From the NCBI RefSeq assembly GCF_963506605.1, contig NC_083276.1, positions 43,276,001-43,340,000 of the forward strand: a stretch of DNA of 64,000 nt, in the 5' to 3' direction. The stretch comes from Zootoca vivipara. Taxonomy: Eukaryota. A model generated the notes under the pieces. It was not told the DNA's origin, made no database searches, and saw nothing but the letters and a program-made list of their open reading frames with translations. This document shows positions 19,001 to 51,300 of this stretch, one piece after another. Each line of letters starts with the position of its first letter. Position 1 is the stretch's first letter. Position numbers and translations under genes: made by a program.

Positions 19001-22000
19001 AATGCATGTGCATGTTTGATGTGCATGCCATTCATACTTTATGCATTTGCTGTGGGAACACTGCAGAGAAAAGTTCAATAATAAATAAAACTATGTGACT
19101 CTTCTGTAGACTATTAGTATTAGTACAGTACTACCATTTTCATACGTTTATAGCTAACGGTTTCCTATAGTTTACAACTAGCCAGTAAAATTCACTGACC
19201 TTGTCTCTGATCCAGGCCTCTACATGGTCCACTTTCTGTAGAAATTCCAGGAAATCCCTACTGTCTTCAAGCATCTTTCCACGAGCAGCAACAGCAGATT
19301 TCAGTGTCTCCCACCGTTCTTGAAGCAAACGAGTCTTACGACGGATTTCCCCTGATTTAGGGTGATTCTGGCACAATAAGGCTTCTCCTTGCTTCATGTA
19401 ATTAGGAAATAATTAAATAATAAGAAAAGATGAAACACAGTATTTCCATTATGTTTCTAAGAAAAACTCAATGCCGGGGAGACACAGGGCCAAACTATCA
19501 AGGATATGGGCCTGTAATAGCAGGTTCCCTGCAGCAACAGGGGGTTGGACGACACAACCATTGCAGTTCCATATAGATTTATGACTCTGTGAAACTGGAT
19601 AGGGTTAAAAATGTGTGACCGCATTTTTTAAAACAAACAAACTGCTGATGAGAGAGCCATTATTATTTATGAATAATTTCCAGAGGCTTCCTTATAGCTG
19701 CTGCTTCTTGTCAAGGACAAGGTAGAACCAGGAATTTGTACTTATTTTTATTTTATTTTTTGCAGATAGGGAGAGAACTGGCCTCTCTCAACAGCAGTTA
19801 CCGACACTACTGTTTATCCATACAGGTTGTAACCAAGCATTTTCAGTACATGGAAACAGGTAATCTCCAGAGACCTGAAGAGATCTACACACTGGGGGAT
19901 AAAATAACTTTCATTTCAAGGCTCTTCAATCTTTTTCTTCTTCTTCTTCGGTAAAAGGTTTTAAGGCTACAGTATTCCATCTTTTAATCTGATTGTTGCA
20001 GAAGGCCCCTACAGGACCCATAGCTGCCAAGTACCCCGTATTTCCCGGGAAACCCCCGTTTTTCCTTAACGTTTCCCAGAGGTCTCCCGTTTCAGCTCCT
20101 CTCCCGTTAATCTCCCTTATTTTGGTTCCTGTCGGCGGCCATGTTTCTGGTGCCGTTTTGCTCATCTATGGACACCAGAAAATGGCTGGTGCCGGTGTCG
20201 GAAGTCACATCTACGCATGTCCGGAAGTGCATAGACGCAACTTCTGGTGTCGCTTTGCCCATCTATGGGCACCGAAAATGGCTGGCGCTGACACCGGAAG
20301 TTGCGTCTACGCACTTCTGGACATGCGTAGACGCGACTTCCGACACCAGCGCCGGCCATTTTCTGGTGCCCATAGATGTGTAAAGCGACACTGGTAGTTG
20401 TGTCTACGCACTTCCAGTGTCACGTGGCTGCTGATCCTGGATTTCTCCGTGAGAGACTTGGCAGGTATGACAGGACCTAAAGATCACAGCACCTCCATTC
20501 AATACTCACCATGTTAACAGTAGAAATTAGATCCTTGTGAGCCAGAATCTCAGCCTCAAATACTTGATGTTTCTGCAGAAGCTTCATTTTGTCACTCAGG
20601 TTGCTAAGATTTTGCAAAGATGGATCCTTCAGCTTTTGCATGCGCTCATCAATCCAGCTCTCTGCCTGTCACCAAAGAATAAGTGTGGTTAGTATTTCAC
20701 ACATATTGCTGTTGCCTTCTATGTAACACTGACATCCTTGTGTCTTAAGTCACATGAATTTAACACACTGGTTTCCCTATCAATCAGAACACATCTGAAG
20801 GACTAACAAAGACTGAGATCACCCTGGTCGTGTTCTGATAATCAAAGGGCATATTCAAAACAGGCTAAATTTAATGAAAAAGTAAAGTGAGAGTTGATCC
20901 TTGGTTGTGCTGACAAAGTACAGATTCTTTCAGAATGACAAGTTTTAACTTCTTCATATCTCTATGGCAAGAATGGGGAACCTGTGACATCCCCCCCGAC
21001 ATATTATTGGACTTCGAGATGCCAGAGAACTCTGATGAAAATAGAAACAGGAGCAGAAATTACTCGTCTGCTTATTTGTCTCATGTCCAGAACAGAAATC
21101 AATCCAGCAAATACAAGAGGTATTCACTGTCTTTTTTGCTTTCACATTTGCATTGTGTTTCCTTTACAGTGAAATTAACAGGGTGGAACAACACATTGAC
21201 CATGTAACTTACCTAATTAATAATATAAACTACCTAAGTTACATAATTTTGCCACACTGGTCACTGAGACAAATAACCCAGCTTCTTGTGTTAGATCAGG
21301 CAACCCCAAACTATGGCCCTCCAGATGTTTTGGCCTACAACTCCCATGATCCCTAGCTAACAGGACCAGTGGTCAGGGATGATGGGAATTGTAGTCCAAA
21401 ACATCTGGAGGGCTGAAGTTTGGGGATGCCTGTGTTAGATGAATGGCAGCTGGACAGAAATAGTGCTGCATGAAGGCAATACAGGGTAGAACAGAAAACA
21501 ATGCCTTGTTACATCCCTAGTTGGACTACAACTCCCATTATCCCTGGCCATTGGCCATGGGGGCTGGGGGAGATGTGCATAGCTTTTCCATACCTGTTCT
21601 ATGGACTTCTCAGACTACTGATACAGCTGGTCCACATAGCAAGCCATTGTATCAGAAAATACAGCAACCATTGGGTCAGGCATAGGCAACCTTGGCTCTC
21701 CAGATGTTTTGGAACTACATCTCCCATGATCCCTAGCTAACAGGGCCACTGGTCAGGGATCATGGGAGTTGTAGTTCCAAAACATCTGGAGAGCCAAGGT
21801 TGCCTATGCCTGCATTGGGTGATTGCTGTGAAATTATGTTCAGCCTCTTGCTTTTCATCCAAAGGGCCATAACCATCTGGGTAAGGCCAATTATGCGGAT
21901 GCAATTAATGGAATATACACCCCCAAACCCAGCTGGGTGGCTTTCTGTGTGATTGGCCCTCCCTATATTGTAATCACTCTTGAAATGTTACAGGAGCATC

Positions 22001-25000
22001 GTGGGATGACCACCCCCACCCCCAAAATACGGCTCTCATATGTACCACATTATTTGCACTACCATGGGTACATGATTAATAGAATTGGGGTTTATGGTAC
22101 TTGGGAATTACAAAATGTAATCTTGGCAATAGAATCATTCTCACCTCTGACAGATTTTGGTAGAAGAGAGCCAGCAGAAGGGCTACCTGCAGTTTTTCTT
22201 GCCTACTTTGAGAGAGATCTTTGATGCATCTTCTTCTCTCTAACATGGCATTGAGCTTGAGATCGATCTGTTTTCTTTCCAGTTCACTGTCCTGCTGCAG
22301 CCTTTTTGATTGTTCCTGAAGAGACAATTCCTGAGAAGGAAACAAGCCTAAAATCAAAGCTGTGTGTTCATGTGATATACATAATCAATCAAGGGTTCCT
22401 GTTCTGTTCACAAAGTATTATTATTTTTTCTACTGGAAGGAAATATAGACACAAAAGAGATCCTTTGAACTGCAAGTCTGAAGTTCAACCTAATGAAATT
22501 GGAGGGAATCAGAAATGCTGGATATTTGAAACTGCTGATTCTCTTTAGCCATCCTGGCTGCTGTGCCAGTAAAAATAATGTATTATATCAATGCTTTTTT
22601 TCAAGAAACATAGGTGCTGGAGCTCGCCATTAACTTCTCCCTTGTTCTTTTAGAATAGCAATGACGCCTACACCCGAGAGGTGTTGGAGCTGAGCTCTGG
22701 CTGAAAAAACACCTTTATTACTCTTCCCAACCCTAGGGCTATACCTGTTGAAATTATTTTGTCTTCCTTCAAAGTTTTCAGCTATTTTGCCTCAAGAACT
22801 TCCAAAGCCACTGAAAAAAACAACCTATCTCCCAAATGGTGGTGTGAGAATCAGCTCTTGCAGCCATGATTCTGGTTGATTTCACTTAGCACAGAAATTA
22901 TTCCAATTATCTTAACCAGTTCTTAAGTTCTTAACCAACTCTTAGGAACCAAACTGGGCATTTGCCTATAACCTAAATCAGGCATCCCCAAATTGTGGCC
23001 CTCCAGATGTTTTGGCCTACAACTCCCATGATCCCTAGCTAAAAGGACCAGTGGTCAGGGATGATGGGAATTGTAGTACAAAACATCTGGAGGGCCAAAG
23101 TTTGGGTTGCCTGACCTAAACACACCTTCCTTTAAGGTCAGGATCTTATAAGTGTTTACCTTTTCAACCTGAGAGGCCAGAAGCTTCTCAAAAGCCTCAT
23201 GTTTCTTTATCTGCTGCTCCACCTCATCCACTGTGCTCCCAAAGTCACTGCTTTTCAAATATGTCTGTGGATAATGAAAATCAATTTTGGTTAAGATTGT
23301 TATATTTGATCAAGGAGTTATTGGGACATATCCTGTTACTTCCCTGAAAGTGTGTCACCTAAGGCTAGGTGTTCAAAAGATTCCTGTAACCTCAGGTTAT
23401 ATCTTTTCTAAAGAACACACACAGTTTGTCAGATCCATTGAAAGAGTAGGGACATCTGAGCACTCCTTGAAAAAACCCACAACTAATCTTTTCCGAGACT
23501 ATTTAAAATGAGGGACAAGAAATGTCTCTCATTGCTCAGTGGAACACTGGCATGGAGAGGCATATTAATGTAAAGGCAAAATTCTTCAAATAAAACATGC
23601 AGTGGAATAGCAGTAGGTGGTAAAAGGGTTGTAAGATGGTAAGGGGTCACTGTACTATATTTTGTCTTTTGGCTAAAATATCTTCAAGGGATAAGGAATG
23701 TTGAGGAATGAGAAGCTATCAGGCTGTATTCATTAACAAACCTGAAAGCATATTTTAAAAATAAAATGAAGATTGCGGATGGTTATTGCACTATTAGTCA
23801 AATCAATCACTCAGACCATTTTAGCTGTGTTGCTTGCTCAGGGAAATTTGGATGTCTGGAAGTTACAGTAGCAGAATTCTTGTTTGAAAATGCTATTTAG
23901 CTGCTGCTATTTATCAAAGTCTACCTGCTTTCTTTTGTGATGGGACATGAAATTGCACTTGTATGGCTAAAAGGATGCATAATAGCACCTGTCTGAAGGT
24001 ATGAGTGATAGACGCAAAAGTATGGCAGTATGAAAGTGCCCTTTGGAGCCTGGTATTTTGTAGTTCTACATCCAAAACTCCAGTTGCATGTGGAAAAGTC
24101 AATTGCAGATGGACTGCTGGTCTAGTTAAGCAAAACTAAACTGCTAGCTGCTTTATACGTCTGTGGAATTTTAAATGTCACATTGAAAGCTGTCAAATCT
24201 CTGCTGTTACTAAACATTGCATGGCTTCTGCTTGACCACAATTGCGTCAAAACATGATGAGCTACATTAGCAGTAGTACAGTTTTATACAGCTTGTGGCC
24301 TGGCAAGTTGAACGCAGTCCATCAGCAATATATTATGCTCCTCTTGATACTGTCTCTGCTTTTTGCACTCCCTAACAGCATGCAATGTAAACAAGGGATC
24401 TATTGAATCCTTGGCAGCCAGCCATACATGGTTGGTGGGCTGCATTTGGCTTGATACAGACCACAGGTTGTGCAAGTCTGCAGTAATAAATCTAGCTAGG
24501 GTTGATGACATGCAGAAAAATGTATTTACTAAGTTGTCCTCAATAACAGGAACGGATTCAGCTAGATCCTGTGCATGCTCACTTGGAATCCAGTCCTGCT
24601 GATTTCACCGAGACTCAGGAGCTGTACACCAGATCTAGTATTATATCAGACTGAGGGTGGAATAAGGCACATATTGATTTTGTTAGATGCCTTTTAAAAA
24701 TGTAAACATGTGTGTTTTTATTACTATTATTATACAGCTTAGCCCCCAAATAGGCTTCTAAGCAGTTTGCTGAGCAGTTACACAAGCTTTGAAGTCTAAG
24801 CATCAAAACATTAAATTAAATTAAATTACAGAATAAAGCATTTCCATAAAACACTAAAATTTACTTCCACAACATATCCACATCAACATGTACCTATGAT
24901 CAAAGACTGCCTAACATTCTGCCATTTCCCTACACGGAAATAATATTTGCACCATAACTATCCAGCTGATGTGAAATGCAACAAATATTCACAGAGCAGT

Positions 25001-28000
25001 ACTTTACACAGTATTATAAATGGGATTTCTCATTCATCCCCCGCCCCCCACATTCATGGCCTTCAGATGCCACTTTATCTGAAGCTGAGTAAGATTATAA
25101 TAGAAAAAAATTCCTTCAGTAGCACCTTAAAGGCCAACTAAGGTTTTATTTTGGTATTTTGGTATGAGCTTTCGTGTGCATGCTTTAAGGTGCTACTGAA
25201 GGAATTTTTTTCTATTTTGCTTCGACTCAGACCAACATGGCTACCTACCTGTAACTAAGATTATAATGTGCTTGTCTGGAATACACATGTGCCCATTCCA
25301 AATAACGATGGGTGGTGACACAACACATGTATTGGTCCTGCGTGTCAGCCCTGCCCTAACACTCCACACACAGTGCCTGCAAGTGTATAAACTGTATGCA
25401 CATATGCTGTGGGCAGGGGGTTTATGCCCTTTTATTTTTTCAGGGTACAGACCACACATTGAAAGCCTACCTGCATAAAAGCTTGCATGCCTTTAGGGTC
25501 TCTGTGCAGAAAGTCATATGAATGTGTAGAGCAGGCATCCCCAAACTTCGGCCCTCCAGATGTTTTAGACTTCAATTCCCATCTCCCCCAACCACTGGTC
25601 CTGTTAGCTAGGGATCATGGGAGTTGTAGGCCAAAACATCTGGAGGGCCGCAGTTTGGGGATGCCTGGTGTAGAGCATTGGGACAGGGGTGGTGAATGAG
25701 ATTCTGCTTCCTTCCCGCTTTCCCTGCATCCATTCACGTAGCACAGCTGTTTGCCTCTGGCTATGGGGCAGGGCTTTCCCTGCTCCATTCCAGGGACCAC
25801 AACAACAGAATTAGGTTTTAATAAACACACCGAGTCACATTTTTCTGTCATCAAAAAAAACCATTTATTTATTTTTGAAACATCTCCCAGGAAAATGAAA
25901 TATTATGCAAGGTATGGCATGGTGGCAATGTCAAGATGCTTGCATCTTGAGCTTTTGTATAGAGATGTAGAATGCAGGGCCCCAGAATCATGACTTAAGA
26001 TTAAATTCTACCCTTTGCCTCTGTGCTAGTCTCACTACAAAAACATTATGGAAAAAGTAAGACATAAGAAAAATCAGGCGATTCCCCCCCTCAAAAAAAC
26101 AACCTTTTTCATAAGCAATGACAAACATAATGAGATTACAGAATGGACTATGGATGAGTAGAAACGTCTTTTGGTTTGGGGCTTTTCAACAGGTTTTAGA
26201 TCATTTCAGCTGAATCCATTTCAGCTGATCATTTCAGCTGAAATGTTATCTATTTTTAAATTCCAGCTCCCAACATGCTAGCTTATATGCAAGGAGTTGG
26301 GACACAGCAAGCAAAAGAAAATGGTGGTGTTCTTTTTAAAAATTTCATAATGACCCTCATCAACTAGGCTAGTAATGAGATTAGCATGATACCCACCACC
26401 ACCAATGATATAATGACCGGTTTTCAGGTCACACACCCCTTTCTTCAGCTGGCTGACAGGCTAATATAGCATGCACAGAAATAAAAAGAAAACTTCCCAA
26501 GCACTTTAGCTTTTAAAGCATCCAGACTTCTTTTCAATTATACCATTTAATGGGTATCTGGCAAAACCAGAAATTGATGGGATGAGAGACCCTGTCAGTA
26601 GCCAGCCAGCTTTCAAGCCACATTTTAGTCAGGGGAAATTCAGCCATATGAGTAGAGTTCTGACATACCCAAACACACACAAATATTTTTCACTTAAAAC
26701 TCATATTTTTGGGTCGTTCTTACAACTCACATTTGTTTTGTTCCTGGTGAAAGCTAGAAGAAGTAAAATTCGAGCAGCAATTGACAAGTTAGCATCTAAA
26801 ATTAGGAACACAGACAAACCTATCCAAAGAAAGGAGTGAATCTGTCCCCACAGTCTCGCTGTTCATAGGAAGAAACAAATAACTCAACTTTAGGGGGGGA
26901 AACAGAATTACATTGGGTGGCCTTCTTCACCACTACCAGAAAAAACAACAGCAACAAAGAACAACAGTTGAACAGATACTAAATTCAATTCAAACATAAA
27001 AAATCATGGTTATGCTTGTTTTTTATAAGTTTCTAAAATGGAATGGAAATCTTCACCACTCTCCGCCCAGCTCCAAAGGAAGCAATTTTTACAGAGATAG
27101 AGGGACACCATGCACTCTCACCAGTTCTGTGGGATGCTGTACGCGCCTGCATGTTTGTCGCAAGTGTATCTTGATCCGCATTTCTTATAGTGTTTGGCTC
27201 CTTGGAAGGGTTTGACTGTGAATTTGCATCATATTGTTGCAAAGGTTGGAATTCAGGACAGCAAACAGGGTTTATTGACAGTGAGAAGCCAGAGCCAATA
27301 TAATCAGTCTGGAACGCAGGAACACCTGTGTTTGAACCTGATGCTCTGATGAAGACCGAAGGAGCTGGGCTTTTTCTGAATTCCTTTATCACTTGAATAG
27401 GGAAGGATGTCCAAGGGGTGGCAAGTATCAGGGTTATTTTGGAAACCTTGTGGCAATCTGGAATTATCCTAGTGCTGGAGGTCCTCCCAAACTCTTTGCC
27501 AGTTGAATGACGGTTCTGAAAGACAACCAAGTCAGGATCTAAATGTGCATTTGCAACGGTCCTTTTGCCAACAGGATCATCTCTTTTAGACACCGTAGTT
27601 GGAGATAACCATATCTCTCTGGAAACTGCTTGCTGGGGAAGACCAGGACACTTAGCCATGGAGGTGACATGAAGCTGTGTAATCTGAAGATCTGCAGAGC
27701 TTCTTGAGGGGATGGCTTGATGGGTCACCTGAGGACCTGTTGCAAGACTGGAAGATGCTGACGACATGTTTTTTCGACGAGGTAAAAAGAGACTGGAATA
27801 ACCATGGCTGCTCACTTGAGAAGCAGTCCTAAATGGCTTTACTGCTATACTGCAAGTTGAAATATAAAGCTTTACTGAAGCATGGAGATCTGGAAGCTGA
27901 GCTTTGCATGGGCTGTAACCATGCCGTATTGGCAGCTCTGAACTACAAGGTGTCAGAGCTGTATGTAGTTTTTTGCTCTGAGATGGAATTGCACACAGAG

Positions 28001-31000
28001 AAACATCCAGACGTGATGTCCAACATGGTAGAGCTCTGGAAGCAGCAGCAGGTGGGAAAGGTACCGCAAACTGCATGGAACCAGTGTGATCAGGAGAAGA
28101 ATGACAAGCACTCCAGTCGCATCCTGAGCACTGCTTGCTGGAGATGAGCGACGACTGGGCACCAGCACTGCTGTAACCATTGTACTGAGGATCTCTGTGA
28201 AGTGCAGGACGCGCTGACTTGATGCCAGGAGGATTAACACAACTGTTGTCTTTCCCGAAACCATTCCCCTTATCTGTATGTGCCAAGACTATATCCAGCC
28301 TTGAGCTGTAAACCTCAGAAGATAGCGAGTGAGACGGTGAGATGTCATTTCCTGGCAAGGTATCTGCGGGTGATGAATGAGTTGGAAAATACCAGGCTGA
28401 GTCTGATAAAATTGCTGCTGGTGGCATCCTCTGGAAAGAGCTGCCCCAGGCAGCTGATTCGGGGGCCAGCGATGGGGTCATTTGACTGGAAGACAACATA
28501 ACTTCCACAGTTGAAATGTAGATGGGTGTGGTCGAAGTCTTGCTGCGATGGTCCGGGAATGACATCCTGCAGTTTTAATCCTAAACTCGGAAGACCAAAG
28601 CTGGAGACGCTTCTGTGCTCTGTATTTTAAAACACACTTTTCATCCTTTTTCTGTTGGCACTGGAAATTTCCATTCTCTCTTGGGTGTGAAGGAGAGGTG
28701 AAGAGCAAATAAATATTTCTCAAAAAAAAAGAGAGAGGAAGTGATACAGAATCTGCAACTGAATGGAGGAGGAGAAGCAGTATTCCTTCAGCACAACTGG
28801 CGGTATTTATCCTGTCTGCAGCATGTCAAAAGAGTGCAGGAAGCAGACAGAGAGATGAGCGAGAATGAGTCTCTAAACTAGTAGCGATGAGGCAGAAGTC
28901 AAACCAGAAATGCTATCCAAAGATGGATGCTGACCTTATTACAATTTCTCCAGATAAACGGATTAAGCGCCTAGCTCACCAGCACTTCCATTGCCTTGAG
29001 AACAGCAGATCGTAATGTGCTCTGCTGCGGTTAAAAGCAAGAGAGCTGTATTCCTCTCCCTCTCTCAGTCACTGCCTATCTGCACTCAGAATAGCAAGAT
29101 CTCTGTTTAACAGGTCTTAGAAGAATTTCCTACAACCGTTCCAAGTAATGGCACACCAGAAAGTCAGTAATAAAAAAGATAGATGTTTGCCTAATTTCCT
29201 CCATATGTGCTCTTATTTACTTTAGAACCAAGCACTCCTAGGCTAAACCTTGCTGAAATCCTTCGAAGGCTTAAGAAACTTGGATGTAACCTAAGATGCT
29301 GGCACACAGTCAACGCCATCACACTGGCACAGGGAACGAATGGGGGAAAGTTCTCATTCAGAATACTGCTGAATGCTTTTCACTATACACCACCGCAGGG
29401 GTAGCCTCTGTATCAAGGTATGCACAGCACAGCCCACGCGCAAAATGATGAACAGCTTGGGCTCTGCTTGTATCCACAGTGATTATAAAAAACAACAACA
29501 GCTATTCACATTCATGTGACTGTGTTTGTGACACCATCAACACCCCTCCTACCCAAAATACAGAGAATGATGAATTGCACACTGCCAAGACAGACTGTTT
29601 TTCAAAAAGAGGATCACTTGAGCCAACCAAAACTGTCAACCTTTCTGCTAAAAGTAACTAGGAATTTCCACCTGAAGCCTTTGTGGACGCAGTGAGAAAA
29701 TGCAAATATTTAAATGCAACTTGGTCCTTCTAATGTGGGGTGGGGCCGGGGCCGGGAGAGTCAAGGTCATATAACCAGGACTGGTTCCCCTTCCCCCAAT
29801 TTCAGTTGTGCAAGAACTTTTTTTTTACTACTTAGCAAATGTCTAGCATCCTGAGAATGCATTACCTAGTGAGGTCTCAATGGAGAGCAGTGTGAGACCA
29901 AGGTTAGGGCCTCATACCTTCTCATTGCTCCTCATCAGTTCCTTTCACCAGTCTTGGAGCATGTTATCTTTGCTTTGTGATGTAGCTAACCGCTGCTATC
30001 ACTTTAAAAAGCTGCTTCCATCCCAAAGTAAGTATCAGTTGGGGGATTCTTATCAGGAAGAAGAAGAAGAAGAAGAAGAAGAAGAAGAAGAAGAAGAAGA
30101 AGAAGAAGAAGAGGAGGAGGAGGAGGAGGAGGAGGAGTTTGGATTTGATATCCTGCTTTATCACTACCCAAAGGAGTCTCAAAGCGGCTAACGTTCTCCT
30201 TTCCCTTCCTCCCCCACAACAAACACTCTGTGAGGTCAGTGGGGCTGAGAGACTTCAGAGAGAAGTGTGACTAGCCCAAGGTCACCCAGCAGCTGCATGT
30301 GGAGGAGCAGAGACACGAACCCGGTTCCCCAGATTACAAGTCTACCACTCTTAACCACTAAAATAATAATCTCAGGGTGGCAAGGTCCCCATGAGAGAGA
30401 CGGGAAGCACAACTCAGCAAGTCTAATGACTATCATAGGGTTCTCTACAAAATGTAGCAAATAATAGCATTAGTATCGATCCAAAATGAAAATAAAATAA
30501 TAATCCTGACAGGCAGTGTTGCAGCTATCAAACCATCTTGTAAGGAGATCCTCACGATAAGACTAGACTGACCAGACTGATCTGGGTTATGATCCAAACT
30601 GAATCTGGTGAGTCCTCTTTAGAATCCATGTTCTATAAACTCCTCATCATTCCCTAGGGAGAGGTAGGGCTAATGGAAAAGTAGGGTTTTAAGTGATACA
30701 CCATGTGGCTTGTTGCATTTTGCAGCAAAGGTCCAGTATGGTGAGTTGTATTAACATGGCATCAATGGCATGAGTATGTTAAATACATTAGCAACAGAAT
30801 AAATAGATGAGAATGCGGAAAAAACATGGCATCAGTGAGCAAATGCACTATTACATCCTTAGTACGTAACTGTTTAGGAACTTTCCACAAAACGTTCCAC
30901 ATTTATAAGTCTGGAATGTGCAAAAGCTTCTCTAAGAAATGTTTCTTGTTTTATCAAAACTGTTTTGGCTTCCTCTGAAATTCCTCAGATGTTTTGCCCG

Positions 31001-34000
31001 AGGGGGAAACTTCACTTTGAACACAATGAAAACTTTTAAGTACAGATGTAATAGGTTTCAAAATCACCACCCACTGTGAATCATAAAAAGGTACATTTTA
31101 TCTAATAAACACTCTGCATTTGAAGGCAAGTTCTTGGCTAAGCCTGATCAAGTAAACGCCAAGGCACCATTAATATACAGTGTACCTCGCAAGACGAATG
31201 CCCTGCAAGACGAATGCATCTTGCGATCTGATGGTGACTCGCAAGACGTATTCATTTTGAGAAAAATTTGTCTTGTGAATCACGGATTACCATAGGAATG
31301 CATTGAAATTTAATTAATGCATTCCTATGGGCAAAAAAAGAAATTTCAATGCACTCCTATGGGAAACCGCGATTTGCAAGACGAATTTTTCGCAAAATTA
31401 AATTCGTCCTGCTAGGTACCACTGTATCTATTTTTATGCACACCTCTTAATATATGTATTTTTGTAAACATTGTTTGGTTGGTTGAAACATTTGGATAAA
31501 ATGTGGTCCTCCAGAGGTCGCTGGACTATAATGTGTGTTATCTCTGACCATTGGCCATGCTGGCTGGGATTGATGGGAACTGCACTCCAAAAACATTTGG
31601 AGGGCTACAGGCTCCGCATACCTTTACTAAGAAAAGGCAAGGAACAGTAGGGCTCGTGCAGCCCAACCAGAGGTGTCCGGTGAAACATGGGGAGTTTCCT
31701 ATTCTTTCACCCACTCCCTTCACTGGCAGAGCCCTGCAGCCACTGCTGGGCCACTTCCACTGCAGATGATGTGAGCTGGAAGCAACAGGATTCCCTCGGC
31801 AGCTTCAGCTGAAGCTTAGTCCTCTGAGGTTCCAGCTACTCCTCTGTTTCCGGGACAAGGGCTTGATTTCAGTGTATGCATAAGTTATGATGCTTAGGAA
31901 TTGGAACCTTGACCCATTCCTTCTAGGGACGGTGCTAAACTGGGTGAAGCAACTGCTCCCTGAACATTTCGAGAGCTGTAGTTGTGTTACGTTTCCTGTA
32001 TTGTTTTAAATGAGACCATCTTGGCTGTGAGCCCTGGAAGATCTGCACCCTGCCTTGATGGCCTTTTCCCATCTGGCCTGGGAGGGTGGAGTGCTGACTG
32101 ACCATAGCTGTCAAGTTTTCCTTTTTCTTGCGAGGAAGCCTATTCAGCATACCGTAAGGGAATTTCCCTTAAAAAAAGGGAGAACTTGACAGCTATGTGA
32201 CTGACTCCAGCCACAAAAGCTGAGGCTGTGGAACAGATTCTTGGGCTGGAGTATTGTTTACGGGGAGTTGGGAGAGCTTGTTGCTGTTATTGATATTATT
32301 GTTGTATCGTTAGTTTTAGATCTTATGATTTATGTGGAAATTGTTTCCATTTGGTTGTGTACTTTTTGATGTATTTTATTTATTTACGACTTCCTGTTAT
32401 GTTTGTAATTATGTAAATCTTGTCATGTTGTAAGCCGCCTTGAGCATAGTTTCAACTGTGGAAAGGTGGCATACAAATAAAATGATGATGATGACGACGA
32501 CTAGGCATTGATTATTATTGGTGCTCATGGTGCCTTGGTCAGTGGAGGTGCACTAGGGGTGGGGAACCTCTGGCCTGTGGGCCAAGCTGGGTCCACCAGG
32601 CCTCCCTTTTAGCCCACTAGGTTATTTAGGGCAAGTGATGATTGAAAGATGAGCAGCCCTGCCCACCTGCCAGGGGTGTGGAGATCTGACCGTCCGGCCA
32701 GAAGAGGTTCCCCACCTCTGAGGTAAACCATAGCCATTGTGGATGTAGCCATTGATAGCCTTATCCTTTTTTAAAGTCATCCAAGTTAGTGACCATCCCT
32801 ACTTCTCGAAGGATCAGATTCCATAGTTTAACTATGGATGCCACGAGATTCTGCTGTTTTATGTCCAACATTGCCACAACAAGCATGTGTGTGTATGTAT
32901 ATACAAGGGAGATGACAAGGCTTGCCCCATCCAGCTCTTCTTCGCTTCCCATCATACTACCACCATTTACCTACCTCTTGTGAGTTTGAGATATTTTCTA
33001 GGTGCTCGCAGTCCCTGTAAAACATCTGCAGAAGGTGGATCTTCTCCAGCCATTCCTTCTTCTCTGCCCACTTGCGGTACACACTGTCCTTTTCTTCCAA
33101 CAGTGCCTGCAATGTGCCTTGGATCTGATATAAGAAAACAACAGAAAATGTCCATGAGAATCCACAAAACAGTATGAGTGATGCTTGTTATGTGAGTGAT
33201 GACTTGGCTATGCTACTAGGGCTCAGGATTTTGGTGAAAAGGAAACAACTGTCTGTTTTCACAAACCTGGGTCTGGATATGTTTCAGTAACCCATTTTCC
33301 CTCTGAGGAACATCCAGTCATTATGATTGTATCTTTACTGCTCTTTAATTGCAGCACATACACAAAAGGAATAACTGGGTAGGAAGACAACTTCTAGAAA
33401 CACTGGTGAGCAATGTGTGTTGATGAGGAGTCCACATTATGCCTACGTACGTCTTTTGTTGGCATTTTCTGTTCCAGCAGCAGTTCTTGTCCCAGCTGTA
33501 GAACCCGTTCATACATGTCACCACGGGCCTCAATCTCTGCCAACAGCTGCTGGTGCTGAGTCAGCTCCAGATCACTAGTAGAGATGTCTCGAATTTTGTC
33601 CTTCATCATCATTTCTCTCATCATTTCTGATGCCCAGGAGGAATAGTCTCGTGCCTGAAAGCCAAGACAAAAATAAAAGATGACGGTCAAGGATTATGAA
33701 TGGCATCCACCTGTGCCATGCTCAGACCCACTGAAAACAATGGGCGTATCTGAAGTCCATTGGTTTCAACAGGTCTACTCCCAAGTAGGATTTAGTTGGA
33801 TTTAACCACTATAGCTTGGATTGGCAATGTTGAATTAATGCATGGCAAATGAAAATGACAGCTAGAATAAGCCGCCTGTGGCTGCTTGTGGCACTGATGA
33901 GAGTTTCATAGCCTGCTGCTGGGAACAGACATCCCTTTCTTTACATGGAACTTTTGTGGTCACTCTGTTTTGCTCTTGCAGTTTCTCTGAAGCCAGAACT

Positions 34001-37000: not shown

Positions 37001-40000
37001 AACTGATTTTCATGGAGGAAGACCACCAGGAATGATCTGCTCTGCTCATTAGGCCTGACACTCGTCCACGTCAGTGGAGATTGTGTTTTTGCTAATAAAG
37101 AGTTAACTGCATTTTTGAACTGTGTGATTTCTGACCAGCACACTCCTGTGACAGTTATCCATATAGGGTGCTAAGTATGGGAAAGCTGGGATAGATTATG
37201 TTAATGCATATGCATAACAATCTTCTCTTCACAGCTAATGTGGCCCTCAAAGGATTCAGTAGATGGGCAGAAACAAAATACCCAATCCATATATTTTCCA
37301 GCATGATTATAACCTCAGTATGGACAAGGGCTTCCATCAGGTCTTGCAGACACTTGTGTATTGACTCAGCATCTTGTAGTCGTTCACCTCGAAACTTTAT
37401 CATCTCCAGCAATTCATCCCAATTGTTCCTGATGAGGGAAACAGGTTGAAAAACGTGAAATGGAACCAGTGCTGGTTCTAGTTGTTTATGCATGCTGAAG
37501 GCATCTTTAGACAACTCAAAATATTGTCGATCCCAGGCTCATAGCTTAGCAGTCCAACAACAAACACATGCTATAATCCAGCGATGAGGGTCTGTCAGTG
37601 GGCCAGCTCCTTATCTCCTCTCCTCATAATTATATCAGGTGATATAATTACACCTTACATCATCATTGATCACTGAGACTTCACAGCAGCATGCAGGATT
37701 GCAAACAGACCTGCATGGTGCTTTGAAGTGCCACTGATTAGTAGACTTGAAGTCATCACCTATCAGGTGATGGGCGGTGACTTCAAGCCTGCTTTTTGCA
37801 AGGAATGACTACATGATCAGGTTCCTCATGGGGAACTCCACTGCACAGCTGATCCAGCCACATCTCTGCTTGCCTGACATATGATGTCAGGTGTTGGATA
37901 AATGGGTGTGGTTTGGGGAAAAACAGCCTCATGGGCCAAATTGGCCCATAGTCTGGAGGTTCTCGACTATGAACCATAAGACAAGCCTTGGTTAGTTACA
38001 GTTCATGTTTTGTCTGGAGATATTTAAACCATGAGCCTGAGTTTGAACGACATGTTAAGTGTCTAGGAATGACTAGGGAGGAAGAAAGCAGCCATGGTTT
38101 CCTCTCACCCACACCCATGTCCTGAGTGTTTCCTTTTTTCCTTGTTTGTGCTGAGCCACTGCTTGGCTTAGTGTTACATGAAAACTGGGCTGGTATGCAT
38201 AGTTTTGTAACTATTGCTTGCTTTTCCTCTAAAGAAGAAGTCCTAAACAATGCAACCTTTCTTCAAGGTAACACAGTTAGCTAGGAAAGGTCCAGCCTCC
38301 TACAACAGCTGTAGCTAGTTCTGTCCTCCTTTACCACTTCCTGTTCCTAGGCAATAAATGCATATGCATAAAGTGGTGCTGGGAAGAAGACTCCCTTTCC
38401 ACTGTTGTCTTAGGGGACAAGGCCAGTCCCCTATGCACACATCTCTAAAGGGTCAATGAAACAGTTCTTTGGAATGATCAACTCTGTCAGCTGATCAGTA
38501 TTTCACAAGTTAGTGATAAATAAGAAGGACCAGCTTTGTGTGTCAAAGAAACCATAATGAAGATCATTTCAGAAAGCTCTTGGTCTTTGAGATCTTTCTT
38601 ATATATTATTTAATTAGCACGGATCTGGCTGTGGCTATTTCCTATTTCCCTGCCAGAAGGTCTCCTCTTACCGCAACTGTTTCTGTTTCTTCCGAATCTC
38701 CCGGGAATCGAAATGGCCACGATCCACCATATCCTCTGCTAGCTGATAGGATGCAACAACTCTCTTGGCAGCAATTTCCATCTGGTGCTGGAGCGTTTCA
38801 TATTTGGCACAAAGATGCTTTCAGAGAAAACATTGAGTGAGAAGGCAGAAGAAATACGCACAGTTCACACACCTCCACACAATTAGCTATCAGCTAATGT
38901 TCCAAACATTCTGTTCCATTCTGTGTTGCTCTGACTTTTCATTCGAGTAAATCTAGCAATAGCTCAGCCTTCTTCAGGTGAGTTAGTATGGCTCCTATGG
39001 CTCAGATGCATGACTTGTCAGGAGCTGCGTGTTTAATATTGTGGCCACAATTTTATGGAAATCCCTCCCAGTTTAGGTCAGACTGGCCCCAATTACTACT
39101 ACTACTTCTTATTCTTCTTCCAGCAGACTTTTAACTTCAAAATGAACTCATTTTTAGTTTCATTGTACTGAGTCTCCTGGATACTGCTTAGAGACTGCTG
39201 TGATTCAGGGGCATAGCAATGGTTGAAAATAAGTAAATCTCACAATGTAAATTCAAAGTATGTGGGGGTTCAATGGGCTAGTCCAGACATGTTCAACTAG
39301 TCGACCACAATCGGCAGGTACCCTGGGTGATCCTGGTTAATTGTGGGATCCTTATTGATCGTGGGATTAAAAAAACTGGGGAATGAATGTCTCCCCCCAC
39401 CCCCCTCACTCTGTCCTTCTGTCACGTCACGTAGGAGTTCGTTTGGTGTCTGCTTTTGAGCTGCGTGCATTGGTTAGCGGCGGATTTTTTGTTGAGCGAT
39501 TTATGGCATTCCCCCTTTGAAAAAGCTCAACAACTCTGGGCACTCCTTCCTAGTAAAAGCTCAACAACTTTGGGCAATCCTCCCCTTGACCACCCACCCC
39601 ACTCATGCTCCTCCTTCTCCCAATGACAATGGGTAGATCACTGCCAGTTTTTTTAATACTGGGAGTAGAATGCAGTCTCTTGGGAGCTGGACATGCCTGG
39701 GCTAGTCTATAATGACTAGAACACTGCCTTTGACTTTTAAAGCTCTTCAGAGCTTGGGAATGGGATACCTGAAGGACCACTTGTCTCCACATGTCACTGC
39801 TTATCAACAAAGGCACTTTGTCAGGTGCCTCCATTATCTAAGGTGTGACAAGGGGTGGCTAAAGGGGGAAAGAACTCAGTTTCAGAACCCTGATTATGGA
39901 ATGCTATCTAGTGCAGGCATCCCCAAACTGCAGCCCTCCAGATGTTTTGGCCCAGAACTCCCATGATCCCTAGCTAACAGGACCAGTGGTCAGGGATGAT

Positions 40001-43000
40001 GGGAATTATAGTCCAAAACATCTGGAGGGACGAAGTTTGGGGATGCCTGATTTAGTGCCTTCCTTGATGTCATTTTTGTGCCAGGCAAAGACCACTTTTA
40101 TTTTCCCATGTGTTGTTTAGTCGTTTAGTCGTGTCCGACTCTTCGTGACCCCATGGACCATAGCACGCCAGGCACTCCTGTCTTCCACTGCCTCCCGCAG
40201 TTTGGTCAAACTCATGTTGGTAGCTTCGAGAACACTGTCCAACCATCTTGTCCTCTGACGTCCTCTTCTCCTAGTGCCCTCAATCTTTCCCAACATCAGG
40301 GTCTTTTCCAAGGATTCTTCTCTTCTCATGAGGTGGCCAAAGTATTGGAGCCTCAGCTTCACGATCTGTCCTTCCAGGGAGCACTCAGGGCTGATTTCTT
40401 TAAGAATGGATAGGTTTGATCTTCTAGCAGTCCATGGGACTCTCAAGAGTCTCCTCCAGCACCATAATTCAAAAGCATCAATTCTTCGGTGATCAGCCTT
40501 CTTTATGGTCCAGCTCTCACTTCCATACATCACTACTGGGAAAACCATAGCTTTAACTATACGGACCTTTGTCGGCAAGGTGATGTCTCTGCTTTTTATG
40601 ATGCTGTCTAGGTTTGTCATTGCTTTTCTCCCAAGAAGCAGGCGTCTTTTAATTTCGTGACTGCTGTCACCATCTGCAGTGATCAAGGAGCCCAAGAAGG
40701 TAAAATCTCTCACTGCCTCCATTTCTTCCCCTTCTATTTGCCAGGAGGTGATGGGACCAGTGGCCATGATCTTGGTTTTTTTGATGTTGAGCTTCAGACC
40801 ATAATTTGCGCTCTCCTCTTTCACCCTCATTAAAAGGTTCTTTAATTCCTCCTCGCTTTCTGCCATCAAGGTTGTGTCATCTGCATATCTGAGGTTGTTG
40901 ATATTTCTTCCGGCAATCTTAATTCCGGCTTGGGATTCATCTAGTCCAGCCTTTCGCATGATGAATTCTGCATATAAGTTAAATAAGCAGGGAGACAATA
41001 TACAACCTTGTCGTACTCCTTTCCCAATTTTGAACCACTCAGTTGTTCCATATCCAGTTCTAACTGTAGCTTCTTGTCCCACATAGAGATTTCTCAGGAG
41101 ACAGATGAGGTGATTAGGCACTCCCATTTCTTTAAGAACTTGCCATAGTTTGCTGTGGTCGACACAGTCAAAGGCTTTTGCATAGTCAATGAAGCAGAAG
41201 TAGACGTTTTTCTGGAACTCTCTAGCTTTCTCCATAATCCAGCGCATGTTTGCTATTTGGTCTCTGGTTCCTCTGCCCTTTTGAAATCCAGCTTGCACTT
41301 CTGGGAGTTCTCGGTCCACATACTGCCTAAGCCTGCCTTGTAGAATTTTAAGCATAACCTTACTAGCGTGTGAAATGAGCGCAATTGTGCGGTAGTTGGA
41401 GCATTCTTTGGCACTGCCCTTCTTTGGAATTGGGATGTAGACTGATCTTCTCCAATCCTCTGGCCATTGCTGAGTTTTCCAAACTTGCTGGCATATTGGG
41501 TGTAGCACCTTAACAGCATCATCTTTTAAAATTTTAAATAGTTCAGCTGGAATATCATCACTTCCACTGGCCTTGTTATTAGCAGTGCTTTCTAAGGCCC
41601 ATTTGACTTCACTCTCCAAGATGTCTGGCTCAAGGTCAGCAACCACACTACCTGAGGTGTACGAAACCTCCATGTCTTTCTGGTATAATTCCTCTGTGTA
41701 TTCTTGCCACCTCTTCTTGATGTCTTCTGCTTCTGTTAGGTCCTTACCACTTTTGTCCTTGATTATGGTAATCTTTGTACGAAATGTTCCTTTCATATCT
41801 CCAATTTTCTTGAACAGATCTCTGGTTTTCCCCATTCTATTGTTTTCCTCTATTTCTTTGCATTGCTCATTTAAGAAGACCCTCTTGTCTCTCCTTGCTG
41901 TTTTTTGGAAATCTGCATTCAGTTTCCTGTATCTTTCCCTATCTCCGTTGCATTTTGCTTGCCTCCTCTCCTCCGCTATTTGTAAGGCCTCGTTGGACAG
42001 CCATTTTGCTTTCTTGCATTTCCTTTTCCTTGGGATGGTTTTCGTTGCTGCCTCCTGTATAATGTTACGAGCCTCCATCCATAGTTCTTCAGGCACTCTG
42101 TCCACCAAATCTAAATCCTTAAACCTGTTCCTCACTTCCACTGTGTATTCATAAGGGATTTGATTCAGATTGTATCTTACTGGCCCAGTGGTTTTTCCTA
42201 CTTTCTTCAGTTTAAGCTGGAATTTTGCTATAAGAAGCTGATGATCTGAGTTACAGTCAGCTCCAGGTCTTGTTTTTGCTGATTGTATAGAGCTTCTCCA
42301 TCTTTGGCTGCAGAGAATATAATCAATCTGATTTCGATGCTGCCCATTTGGTGATATCCATGTGTAGAGTCGTCTCTTGTGTTGTTGGAAGAGAGTGTTT
42401 GTGATGACCAGCTTGTTCTCTTGACAGAACTCTATTAGCCTTTGCCCTGCTTCATTTTGAACTCCAAGGCCAAACTTGCCAGTTGTTCCTTTTATCTCTT
42501 GATTCCCTACTTTAGCATTCCAATCCCCTGTAATGAGAAGAACATCCTTCTTTGGTGTCATTTCTAGAAGGTGTTGTAGGTCTTCATAGAATTGGTCAAT
42601 TTCACTTTCTTCAGCACCGGTAGTTGGTGCATAAACTTGGATTACTGTGATGTTAAAAGGTCTGCCTTGGATTCGTATCGAGATCATTCTGTCATTTTTG
42701 AGATTGCATCCCATTACAGCTTTTGCCACTCTTTTGTTGACTATGAGGGCCACTCCATTTCTACTACGGGATTCTTGCCCACAGTAGTAGATACGATAGT
42801 CACCCGAACTGAATTCGCCCATTCCCTTCCATTTTAGTTCACTGATGCCCAGGATGTCTATATTTATTCTTGTCATCTCATTTTTGACCACATCCAGCTT
42901 ACCTCCACTCATGGTTCTTACATTCCAGGTTCCTATGCAATATTTTTCTTTACAGCATCAGACTTTCCTTTCGCTTCCAGGCATATCCGCAACTGAGCGT

Positions 43001-48300: not shown

Positions 48301-51300
48301 TTCAGTATGTGTGGGAAAGAGGTGTGAAAATAATTTGCCTTGTAAGATAAGAACACAAGAAAAGCTCTAGTGGATCAGACTGAAGCCCGATCTACTCTTG
48401 ACCTATCTACATTGACCAATTGGGGTATGGGAGCAATAGCACTTCCTTTCCGTTGATCCCCAGCATTGAGAACATATTGTCTCTGATCAGCTTTCTGACT
48501 AGTAGCCATTGATAACTAGAAATAGACAAGTAACATTTGGCAGGATAAATTATTCTGGAAAGCTGAATGCTTGGTGGATTAAAGTTACTACCCTATTTCT
48601 TAACTTGTAACAAAGAATCAGTGGTTTTCTATTTGCTACATTGGCTTTATCCAGCAAAAAATATATATCAGGGAATATGTTTTTTGGTTTCTGAAATTTT
48701 AGAGAGGGGTTGCCATTCTGCATTGCCTTTTTCAACCATATGTGGTTTTTTTAAAAAAAAATTGCTGTCATGTTGAAGCATAAACTTTTTAAAAACTCCC
48801 TGTCACTAGTAACACCAGAGCTAAGTTTAAACATGTGTCTCATGTTCTGAATATTGTCAAGCTGAGGTGTTTCATTCTGACACTAATTTTCCACAGAAGA
48901 AAGTAAAAACAGATTATTCATGTAACTTCTAAAATATGCTGGCAAGATCACCCAGTCAAGTAGGAAGGGGGGAAATATCCATTATTTCATTCTTTATCGT
49001 GTCCTCCCTCAAAGAGGGCACGTGTTGAGGTGCAACCTGGCAACCAAACCCTGTGTTGTGGGTGGGTACGATTGGATAGTCACAACACCCGATTGGTAGG
49101 TCCCTTGTTGCTGGGTTGAATCAGGCCAATGGGACACTAGCCAAACCGATCAAGGGACCTTTATATGCCCATGCATGGGGCTCAGAGCTTCCTCTTTTGG
49201 TCAGTGCATCAGAAAACCCACCCACCTCTCCCTACTTTTAGGGCTTGCGCGCTTGACCTTGCTATGCCGTCATGTGTTGTCTGTCGTTGGGACAGGGGCA
49301 CGGCAGGAATTTCCCCACTTGGCTGGTGCCTCTTGGGTTTCGCCTGCCGCGTAGCAAATCATCACAACTTGTAAGGTTGCGGATAGGCTCTGGTTCAGGT
49401 GATAGGGATGGGGATGGGGATGGGGGAGCGCTCTCACCATCCCTATGTGAAGGGTATTCTGTTAAAGGAATCCAGGGACTCTATGGTTTGGTCAACCCTG
49501 TGAGGGGGTTGTGCCTAAATAAAGTTGTGGCCTAAATTCTGCCAAAAACCAAACCAAGATTTGTGTCTTGTCTGAATTTATTTAAGGAGGGAGGTTTAAA
49601 GGTCTAAACACGCAAATTACATCGATATGGAAGAATTCTAGGGAAACTGAGTAATGTCCTCAACTTGGACCCCTATACCTGAAGGGCCACCATTTCCCCA
49701 TTTGAAGTTGCCTGGATCTTGAGGTTGTCATGTGAGGCCCTTCCCTACATGACAGATCCAGGGTGTGGTGATTGAGGCCTTTTCTGTATGGAATGTTGTC
49801 TCCAAGAAGGCCTTCCATGTGCGAACATAAGAACAGAGCAAGAGCCTGATGTATCAGGCCAATGGTCCATCTAGTCCAGCAATCTGTGCTCACAGTGGCC
49901 AACAAGATGCTTGTGGGAAGCCCACAAGCAGGACCCAATGCAATAGCACTCTCCTCCCCTGTGGTATACAGAAGCATTAGTGTCTCTGACTTTGGAGGCT
50001 GAGATAGCCATCATGGCTGGTACCAATTATCCTCCATTGATTTGTCCAATCCTCTTTTAAAGCCATCCAAGTGGGTGCCCATCACTGGCTCCTGGGGAAG
50101 CGAGTTCCATAGTTTAATGAATCATAGAATCATAAGAATTGGAAGAGACCACAAGGGCCATCCAGTCCAACCCCCTGCCAAGCAGGAAACACCATCAAAG
50201 CATTCCTGACATATGGCCGCCAAGCCTTCGCTTAAAGACCTCCAAAGAAGGAGACTCCACCACACTCCTTGGCAGCAAATTCCACTGCCAAACAGCTCTT
50301 ACTGTCAGGAAGTTTAGGTGGAATCTTCTTTCTTGTAGTTTGAATCCATGGCTCCATGTCCGCTTCTCTGGAGCAGCAGAAAACAACCTTTCTCCCTCCT
50401 CTATATGGCATCCTTTTATATATTTGAACATGGCTATCATATCACCCTTTAACCTTCTCTTCTCCAGGCTAAACATACCCAGCTCCCTAAGCCGTTCCTC
50501 ATAAGGCTTCGTTTCCAGGCCCTTTGACCATTTTGGTTGCCCTCCCCTGGACACGTTCCAGCTTTTCAGTATCCTTCTTGAACTGTGGTGCCCAGAACTG
50601 GACACAGTACTCCAGGTGAGGTCTGACCAGAGCAGAATACTGTACAGTGGTACTATTACTTCCCTTGGTCTAGATCAGGCATGTCAAACATGCGGCCCTC
50701 CAGATGTTTTGGCCTACAACTCCCATGATCCCTAGCTAGCAGGACCAGTGGTTGGGGAAGATGGGAAATGTAGTCCAAAACATCTGGAGGGCCGCAGGTT
50801 TGACATGCCTGGTCTAGATGCTATACTCCTATTGATGCAGCCCAGAATTGCATTGGCTTTTTTAGCTGCTGCATCACACTGTTGACTCATGTCAAGTTTG
50901 TGGTCTACCAAGACTCCTAGATCCTTTCACATGTAGGTGTCCCCCATCCTGTATTTGTGCCTTTCATTCCCCCCCCCCAAGTGCAGTACTTTACATTTCT
51001 CCCTGTTAAAATTAATCTTGTTTGCTTTGGCCCAGTTGTCTAATCTGTTAAGGTCATTTTGAATGATTCACTGAATGAAGAAGCACTCTCTTTTATATGA
51101 CCTGAATCTTCCAACATTCATCTTCACAGAATGTCCAAGAGTTCTAGTCTTAGAGAGCAATAACTTTATCATCATTTAGGTGCCAGGCATTTTAGATTTC
51201 TTGGGCATTTTGGAAGCACCAAATGTTTGGATGTTTTAATTGTATGCTTTTAAAATGCTATATATTTTCATTACTGCCTTTTGTTCCTGTTGTAAATTGT

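Follow-up and report, generated by a model that had tools for sequence, protein, structure and literature searches.

Within a 64,000-nucleotide stretch of the Zootoca vivipara genome (contig NC_083276.1, positions 43,276,001 to 43,340,000; hereafter the window, in which position 1 is the first letter), an intact open reading frame (ORF) lies nested in an intron of the spectrin gene SPTBN5, on the same (minus) strand, and here we describe the evidence that it is a gene in its own right. SPTBN5 proteins mapped on the window mark out 37 exon blocks, and the longest gap among them is a phase-0 intron of 9,710 nucleotides (nt) that joins ...NSQE|TYLKSS. The coding sequence of the ORF falls fully within this intron: 510 codons in a single exon, open throughout from an ATG (28565) to a TAG (27033), with an A at position -3, CAG|GATG directly before the start, and in-frame stops upstream (TAG 28583, TAA 28577). 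A sequence-only reading of the window had picked out this frame in the largest SPTBN5 intron; its coordinates, stops, A at -3 and intron size were borne out, and an acceptor-like AG (28681-28680), an ATTAAA (26551-26546) and an AATAAA (25869-25864) to which it pointed are all present.

Chance does not account for a frame of this length. The longest open frame per simulated 64-kb sequence (order-3 Markov, 30 simulations) was only 146–246 codons, so that 510 codons are beyond chance, although the earlier estimate of about e^-24 for chance survival was overstated. The sequence-only reading also held this to be the only long ORF in the window that neither a transposable element nor an exon explains, and the remaining long frames are exon read-through, of chance length, or similar to what we take to be ORFs of long interspersed nuclear elements (LINEs). 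DNA and protein comparisons both show just one copy of the 510-codon stretch in the 1.44-Gb genome; a weak second genomic protein match (E 0.027, with four stops) was rejected as noise.

Orthologues occur from frog to birds. The nearest named relative, at 94%, is Podarcis lilfordi. A protein search with the ORF returned 30 relatives at E<=0.01 among 7,701 candidates, 45–65% identical and mostly full length, from lizards, geckos, snakes, turtles and birds (including horned lizard, gecko, python, tortoise, woodpecker and pigeon), and a profile scan of 1.84 billion cluster representatives yielded three clusters, all of them orthologues. The third is a Xenopus laevis protein (XELAEV_18041097mg, P0079; E 3.5e-49, 29% identity), whose sole match in the Zootoca genome is the nested-ORF locus. 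Protein homologues thus show a full-length ORF retained from frog to birds, with squamates, turtles, birds and an amphibian represented. In an alignment of 32 stand-alone proteins, from which models fused to SPTBN5 and one shortened entry (P0031) were left out, the orthologous start Met is found in 28 and a C-terminal [ILV]PF in 31, the last residues being exactly VVKISIPF in 26. The tree groups squamates (100/99), turtles (100/99) and birds (99/100), with the frog on a long branch and a topology that follows the species tree. Judged from this conservation, the ORF is almost certainly translated. The shortened entry P0031, from a bird, departs from the family alignment after REFRR and ends in YFAIF, with no match to the next SPTBN5 exon; it may represent a further splice form or a fault of the assembly.

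Stand-alone copies are annotated in RefSeq and other sets for three turtles, a woodpecker, a macaw, a python and a horned lizard. The frog entry and four further full-length entries, LOC115650119 (Gopherus evgoodei), LOC128837431 (Malaclemys terrapin), JD844_021301 (Phrynosoma) and PHA67_008307 (Liasis), are the same gene, but as automatic ‘uncharacterized’ or ‘hypothetical’ predictions they carry neither family nor function, and literature searches on the SPTBN5 locus and on these five locus identifiers found no description of the nested gene. Among models in which the ORF is fused to spectrin, those of a lacertid, a gecko, a snake, a partridge and two pigeons all put it ahead of one and the same SPTBN5 exon (xYLKSSD/C), and those of the snake and one of the pigeons also show the NSQE/HSQE exon in front of it; because the flanking exons are the same, the nesting is common to squamates and birds. 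Nested intronic genes are compact genes lying wholly within one host intron, and the same-strand arrangement is the less common one. The gene described here is like them in its compactness, and differs in sharing the strand of its host and in having stayed in one intron in both squamates and birds.

No mammal or fish homologue emerged from the protein and profile library searches, with the limits that mammal genomes themselves were not searched and that the libraries may filter mammalian sequence. Since mammals stand closer than the frog, loss in the mammalian lineage is the likely reading, while fish homologues may lie beyond the reach of these searches. A second, word-index search with the frog-including alignment added no new taxa and missed the frog itself, which marks it as weak for distant relatives, and metagenome contigs, scanned twice for orthologous DNA, gave 86 and 54 pattern matches, none of which was confirmed.

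The locus is also transcribed. Of 22 listed sequencing runs, four were mapped on 23110-30050: X20, X21 and X22 (raw RNA runs, sampled at about 6% each) and X1. No run is on record as RNA, and the RNA evidence comes from read placement; X1, taken as RNA by guess, is silent elsewhere except in repeats. Four bins at 24966-25893 were swamped by repeats and set aside. Across 25894-28445, 7, 8 and 7 of 11 bins held reads in X20, X21 and X22, respectively, whereas among 15 unique bins elsewhere the figures were 0, 1 and 0; the reads fall, at low depth, on the ORF and the 3' untranslated region (UTR). Nearly all first mates map to the plus strand, which implies minus-strand RNA if the library is of the usual stranded type. 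The X1 contigs (25932-26053, 26024-27044, 27064-27609 and 27598-27984) include one that takes in the last codons, the stop and 1 kb of 3' UTR. Coverage continues past the ATTAAA at 26551 and ends just before an overlapping AATAAA pair (25873-25864), which is likely to be the poly(A) signal. The only host exon within the mapped stretch, 23160-23264, has zero reads in all four runs. The RNA data point to a stand-alone transcript without host exons and, with the single copy and the orthologues from frog to birds, they uphold the earlier suggestion of a separate nested gene. The features of the locus are collected in the table.

Features of the nested gene and its host intron (positions in the window; M1–M13 are conserved blocks of the protein)
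Feature	Position	Strand	Basis or remark
Upstream SPTBN5 exon, ending ...NSQE	32975..33124	-	SPTBN5 protein mapping
Host SPTBN5 intron, 9,710 nt, phase 0	23265..32974	-	SPTBN5 protein mapping
Conserved upstream block	28627..28716	-	translated match to bird P0020
TATA-like TATTTAT (presumed motif label)	28715-28709	-	upstream block
Pyrimidine tract, initiator (Inr)-like TCACACC (presumed label) or acceptor AG	28690-28684 (TCACACC); 28681-28680 (AG)	-	upstream block
15-codon upstream ORF, strong context	28674-28627	-	upstream block
Palindrome TGGAAATTTCCA	28673-28662	-	upstream block
Nested-gene ORF, 510 codons, single exon	27033..28565	-	translation and orthologues
M1 YISTVEVML (frog YVSKLDLTL)	28494..28520	-	block conservation
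M2 YSSRLDIVL	28284..28310	-	block conservation
M3 WTSRLDVSL	27996..28022	-	block conservation
M4, double motif	27834..27884	-	block conservation
M6 LQITQLHV and M7 SREIWLSP	27600..27692	-	block conservation
M8–M10, most conserved cluster	27345..27452	-	block conservation
M11	27267..27299	-	block conservation
GC donor CAG|GCGCGT, phase 0, after Q473	27141..27149	-	equivalent to P. lilfordi P0032-P0034 junction
M12–M13, C-terminal; two adjacent strands in both low-confidence models	27036..27110	-	alignment and AlphaFold2
3' UTR, about 1.2 kb (likely)	25874..27032	-	RNA contigs down to 25932
Two overlapping AATAAA (25873-25868, 25869-25864), then U/GU-rich sequence; likely poly(A) signal	25864..25873	-	coverage ends just upstream
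Downstream SPTBN5 exon, starting TYLKSSDF; zero RNA reads in four of four runs	23160..23264	-	

About 110 nt upstream of the start, translation of the window matches an N-terminal extension of bird entry P0020 (EWKFPVP.EKG), the open upstream frame of which reads EEEWKFPVPKEKG; the match lies 37 versus 36 codons from the ATG. The match to the bird extension argues for conservation of the upstream block at the DNA level, even though the lizard frame carries three stops here. A promoter with TATA-like and Inr-like elements and a splice acceptor both fit the block, and the two RefSeq accessions of one woodpecker protein suggest alternative untranslated exons. That the nested gene has an internal promoter of its own seems to us likely.

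The encoded protein is without recognizable domains. Pfam gave no family at E<=10 for the ORF protein, with scattered weak matches (one member each) among 31 homologues; a PDB profile search gave no match, and the ESM Atlas no usable match for the lizard or the frog protein. Ser, Pro and Thr make up 30–32% of residues, no hydrophobic segment is present (maximum 19-residue mean 1.0–1.3), and the AlphaFold2 predicted local distance difference test score (pLDDT) is 26 over the full protein and 36 over residues 340–510, below 50 at every residue, with no confident fold. The sequence-only reading of a largely disordered, unrecognized protein is thus upheld, except that the chain is not featureless: conservation is limited to about 13 short blocks of 6–17 residues, beta-strand-like and alternating between hydrophobic and polar residues, joined by linkers of 30–90 residues that vary in length. 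Identity to the frog protein is 77/160 inside the blocks versus 57/350 outside (most blocks, 12 of them, had been picked out when the frog protein was still to be discovered, and three joined the list later). Four blocks, M1 in its frog version, M2, M3 and M8, repeat a single motif, and the pattern S-[RK]-[LVI]-[DENT]-[VILF]-x-[LIV], derived from these same sequences, occurs three to four times per protein versus about 0.01 in shuffles. A Met-Ser-Cys start found in 20 of the 32 orthologues, including the frog, is a possible N-terminal lipidation site; Zootoca has Phe at position 3 (28557-28565).

This short-block anatomy suggests a multivalent short-motif scaffold whose motifs would serve as extra strands on a partner's sheet. 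Disordered scaffolds with multivalent beta-strand motifs include ASCIZ, with its LC8-binding TQT repeats, BAG3, with its IPV motifs for small heat-shock proteins, and myozenin/FATZ; the nested-gene protein resembles them in setting several short strand motifs in a long chain rich in Ser, Pro and Thr, with no homology to any. TQT, IxI/V, SIM, LIR, RVxF and SxIP patterns are not enriched in the nested-gene proteins. Filamin offers a further comparison: three reports describe ligands that bind its CD face by contributing an extra strand in which hydrophobic residues alternate and after which a Pro often stands (PMC4554727; PMC10164935; bioRxiv 10.1101/2025.05.02.651884). The nested-gene protein, too, has beta-prone alternating segments in a disordered region, as do migfilin, integrin beta tails, CFTR and LARP4, but these carry one or two sites where it would carry up to about a dozen; it has no significant sequence similarity to them, and the known ligands themselves share little sequence. 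By eye, M8 and M11 fit the migfilin register. The pattern S/T-x-H-x-H-x-H, chosen after looking, occurs five times in the lizard (p 0.01) and five times in the frog (p 0.005), and is over-represented in six of the eight proteins tested (p 0.005–0.035). A complex prediction for residues 364–402 with a lizard filamin repeat, which we take to be Ig9 of class A, scored 0.02 without alignments and counts neither way.

Our preferred explanation, to which we lean without strong conviction, is that the ORF is a single-copy nested gene on the SPTBN5 strand, transcribed, present from frog to birds, and encoding a disordered docking scaffold. An internal promoter and a poly(A) site of its own would give a stand-alone, same-strand transcript from within the SPTBN5 intron; its largely disordered product would present about 13 motifs of beta-strand type, each able to dock onto the edge of a partner's beta-sheet. 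On balance we expect the motifs to bind by such beta-sheet addition. Immunoglobulin (Ig) domains of the filamin type are the leading candidate for the partner, a guess that is doubtful in itself.

Several observations weigh against this explanation. RNA depth is very low (an estimated 18–30 reads per run, from bin depths), with almost no reads on the 5' 120 codons and the region upstream and none above 28445; some reads in two bins are of the opposite strand, and no single read or contig covers the whole transcript. As to filamin, BLOSUM similarity to three published ligand cores is at chance in 12 of 12 comparisons (p 0.17–0.94), the S/T-x-H-x-H-x-H excess is not significant in two of the eight proteins (both birds, p 0.11–0.13), and plain H-x-H-x-H is not enriched in any of the eight. 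The filamin pattern also discriminates poorly, because the hits of a filamin screen show no clear consensus (bioRxiv 10.1101/2025.05.02.651884). Finally, six of the seven within-species ORF differences listed change an amino acid: five fall in linkers and one, I to V, beside M3, the silent difference being in M8. These polymorphisms fit relaxed linkers and give no support for selection by themselves.

Instead, the ORF could serve mainly as a very large exon of SPTBN5, either an alternative first exon or a cassette, whose disordered segment replaces the actin-binding head or interrupts the rod. SPTBN5 models of six species do contain the ORF (P0005, P0030, P0032-P0034, P0038, P0080 and P0096): P. 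lilfordi with three isoforms (P0032-P0034), a gecko, two pigeons, a partridge and a gopher snake, the last a RefSeq model with the full in-frame cassette; several start at the ORF ATG without the N-terminal half of spectrin. The claim that the ORF cannot be an in-frame cassette was overstated, given that these database models make use of candidate acceptors and donors in phase 0, and the phase-1 site CTG|GTGAGA, put forward as its best internal donor, is present but scores below the phase-0 GC donor CAG|GCGCGT at 27147/27146 (4.3 versus 4.9 with a rough matrix; median of 36 host donors 4.1). The latter is the best-scoring phase-0 site here and corresponds to the lacertid fused junction, and the three bird models have one donor in common. 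Over all the fused models, however, four different donors are used (after residues 391, 473, 491 and 502 in lizard numbering) rather than one conserved in-frame junction to the spectrin exons; all four cut into the conserved C-terminal block or remove it whole, and lose the stop, whereas 31 of the 32 stand-alone proteins keep this end, and the bird, snake and gecko donors are poor-scoring or weak-looking in the Zootoca genome. The four runs contain no junction reads at the 27147 donor or to the neighbouring host exon, which itself had no reads at all; SPTBN5 is silent in those runs, and a tissue-restricted fusion, or a minor chimera in lacertids or birds, could escape them. Varied donors that cut a conserved tail fit stitching by gene finders better than a conserved splice, the SPTBN5 models carrying the ORF are probable annotation errors, and we consider a mainly spectrin-exon role unlikely. 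Still less credible is an ORF that is open by chance, left over from a transposon or derived from an endogenous virus. The lack of any domain match, the low expression and the mostly amino-acid-changing polymorphisms listed would suit such an origin, but a multicopy transposon or viral match was looked for and none was found: the ORF is single copy, it has no Pfam family, and of 1.84 billion representatives only the three clusters of orthologues match its profile. The conservation data, an intact frame in species from frog to birds and a tree resembling that of the species, refute this origin.

Two other roles for the protein can be set beside docking onto a partner's sheet. Its strands might pair with each other, as a long-loop fold or a self-assembling fibre that needs no partner protein; in both AlphaFold2 runs the C-terminus holds strands next to one another, and the repeated motif could stack on itself, but with such low pLDDT throughout and linkers so long and variable we regard self-pairing as quite unlikely. 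Alternatively, the protein could be a calcineurin-docking scaffold or regulator acting through PxIxIT motifs, and the palindrome TGGAAATTTCCA, which lies inside the upstream block conserved in the bird and resembles what we take to be an NFAT/NF-kB site, would then recall a feedback regulator. All 32 proteins contain at least one P-x-[ILVF]-x-[ILVF] (mean 3.3), with PALQIT in turtles and birds and PTFQIT and PAIFIS in the frog. The pattern is, however, not enriched over shuffles (p 0.05–1.0), strict PxIxI[TS] occurs in 22 of 32 proteins and is absent from that of Zootoca, LxVP is found in only five of 32, and the repeated SRLD-type motif is left unexplained. Human proteins hold 21,791 matches to the loose PxIxIT pattern, nearly all of which are non-binders (bioRxiv 10.1101/632547), and we give this role little credence. 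Boldest, and to our minds very improbable, is a many-armed filamin clamp, lost in mammals, whose exon is also spliced onto the C-terminal half of beta-V spectrin. If this were true, the spectrin head would be swapped for a filamin-docking array, and one locus would couple the membrane skeleton to a force sensor in two ways.

What stands apart from these questions of role is a real, ancient and unnamed nested gene, in an arrangement known in kind, from a family undescribed in the literature searched. The intact gene is at least as old as the frog–amniote split, and is without a name or family. Genome annotations that swallow the ORF into SPTBN5 misreport both genes, and poultry-genetics variants assigned to an ‘SPTBN5 intron’ may hit the nested gene. 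It is open to direct study in chicken and Xenopus, its roughly dozen discrete motifs are ready peptides for a partner search, and its apparent absence from mammals is a candidate lineage-specific loss.

The window also contains repeats of several kinds. Another SPTBN5 intron carries an intact 946-codon frame (40117-42957, minus strand) that looks like an RTE/BovB-type LINE ORF with endonuclease and reverse transcriptase, a label that we presume; a fragment at 62925-63755 (plus strand) is of the same family, and one at 50195-50674 (minus strand) resembles what we take to be the C-terminus of CR1 LINE ORF2. A palindromic family of about 140 nt, resembling miniature inverted-repeat transposable elements, occurs at 21292-21432, 21672-21812, 22973-23106, 25527-25673 and 39906-40000, and is very abundant in RNA reads that originate elsewhere in the genome. 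In the host intron itself, 1.5 kb upstream of the ORF, lies a microsatellite of (GAA)19 followed by (GAG)9 (30057-30137).

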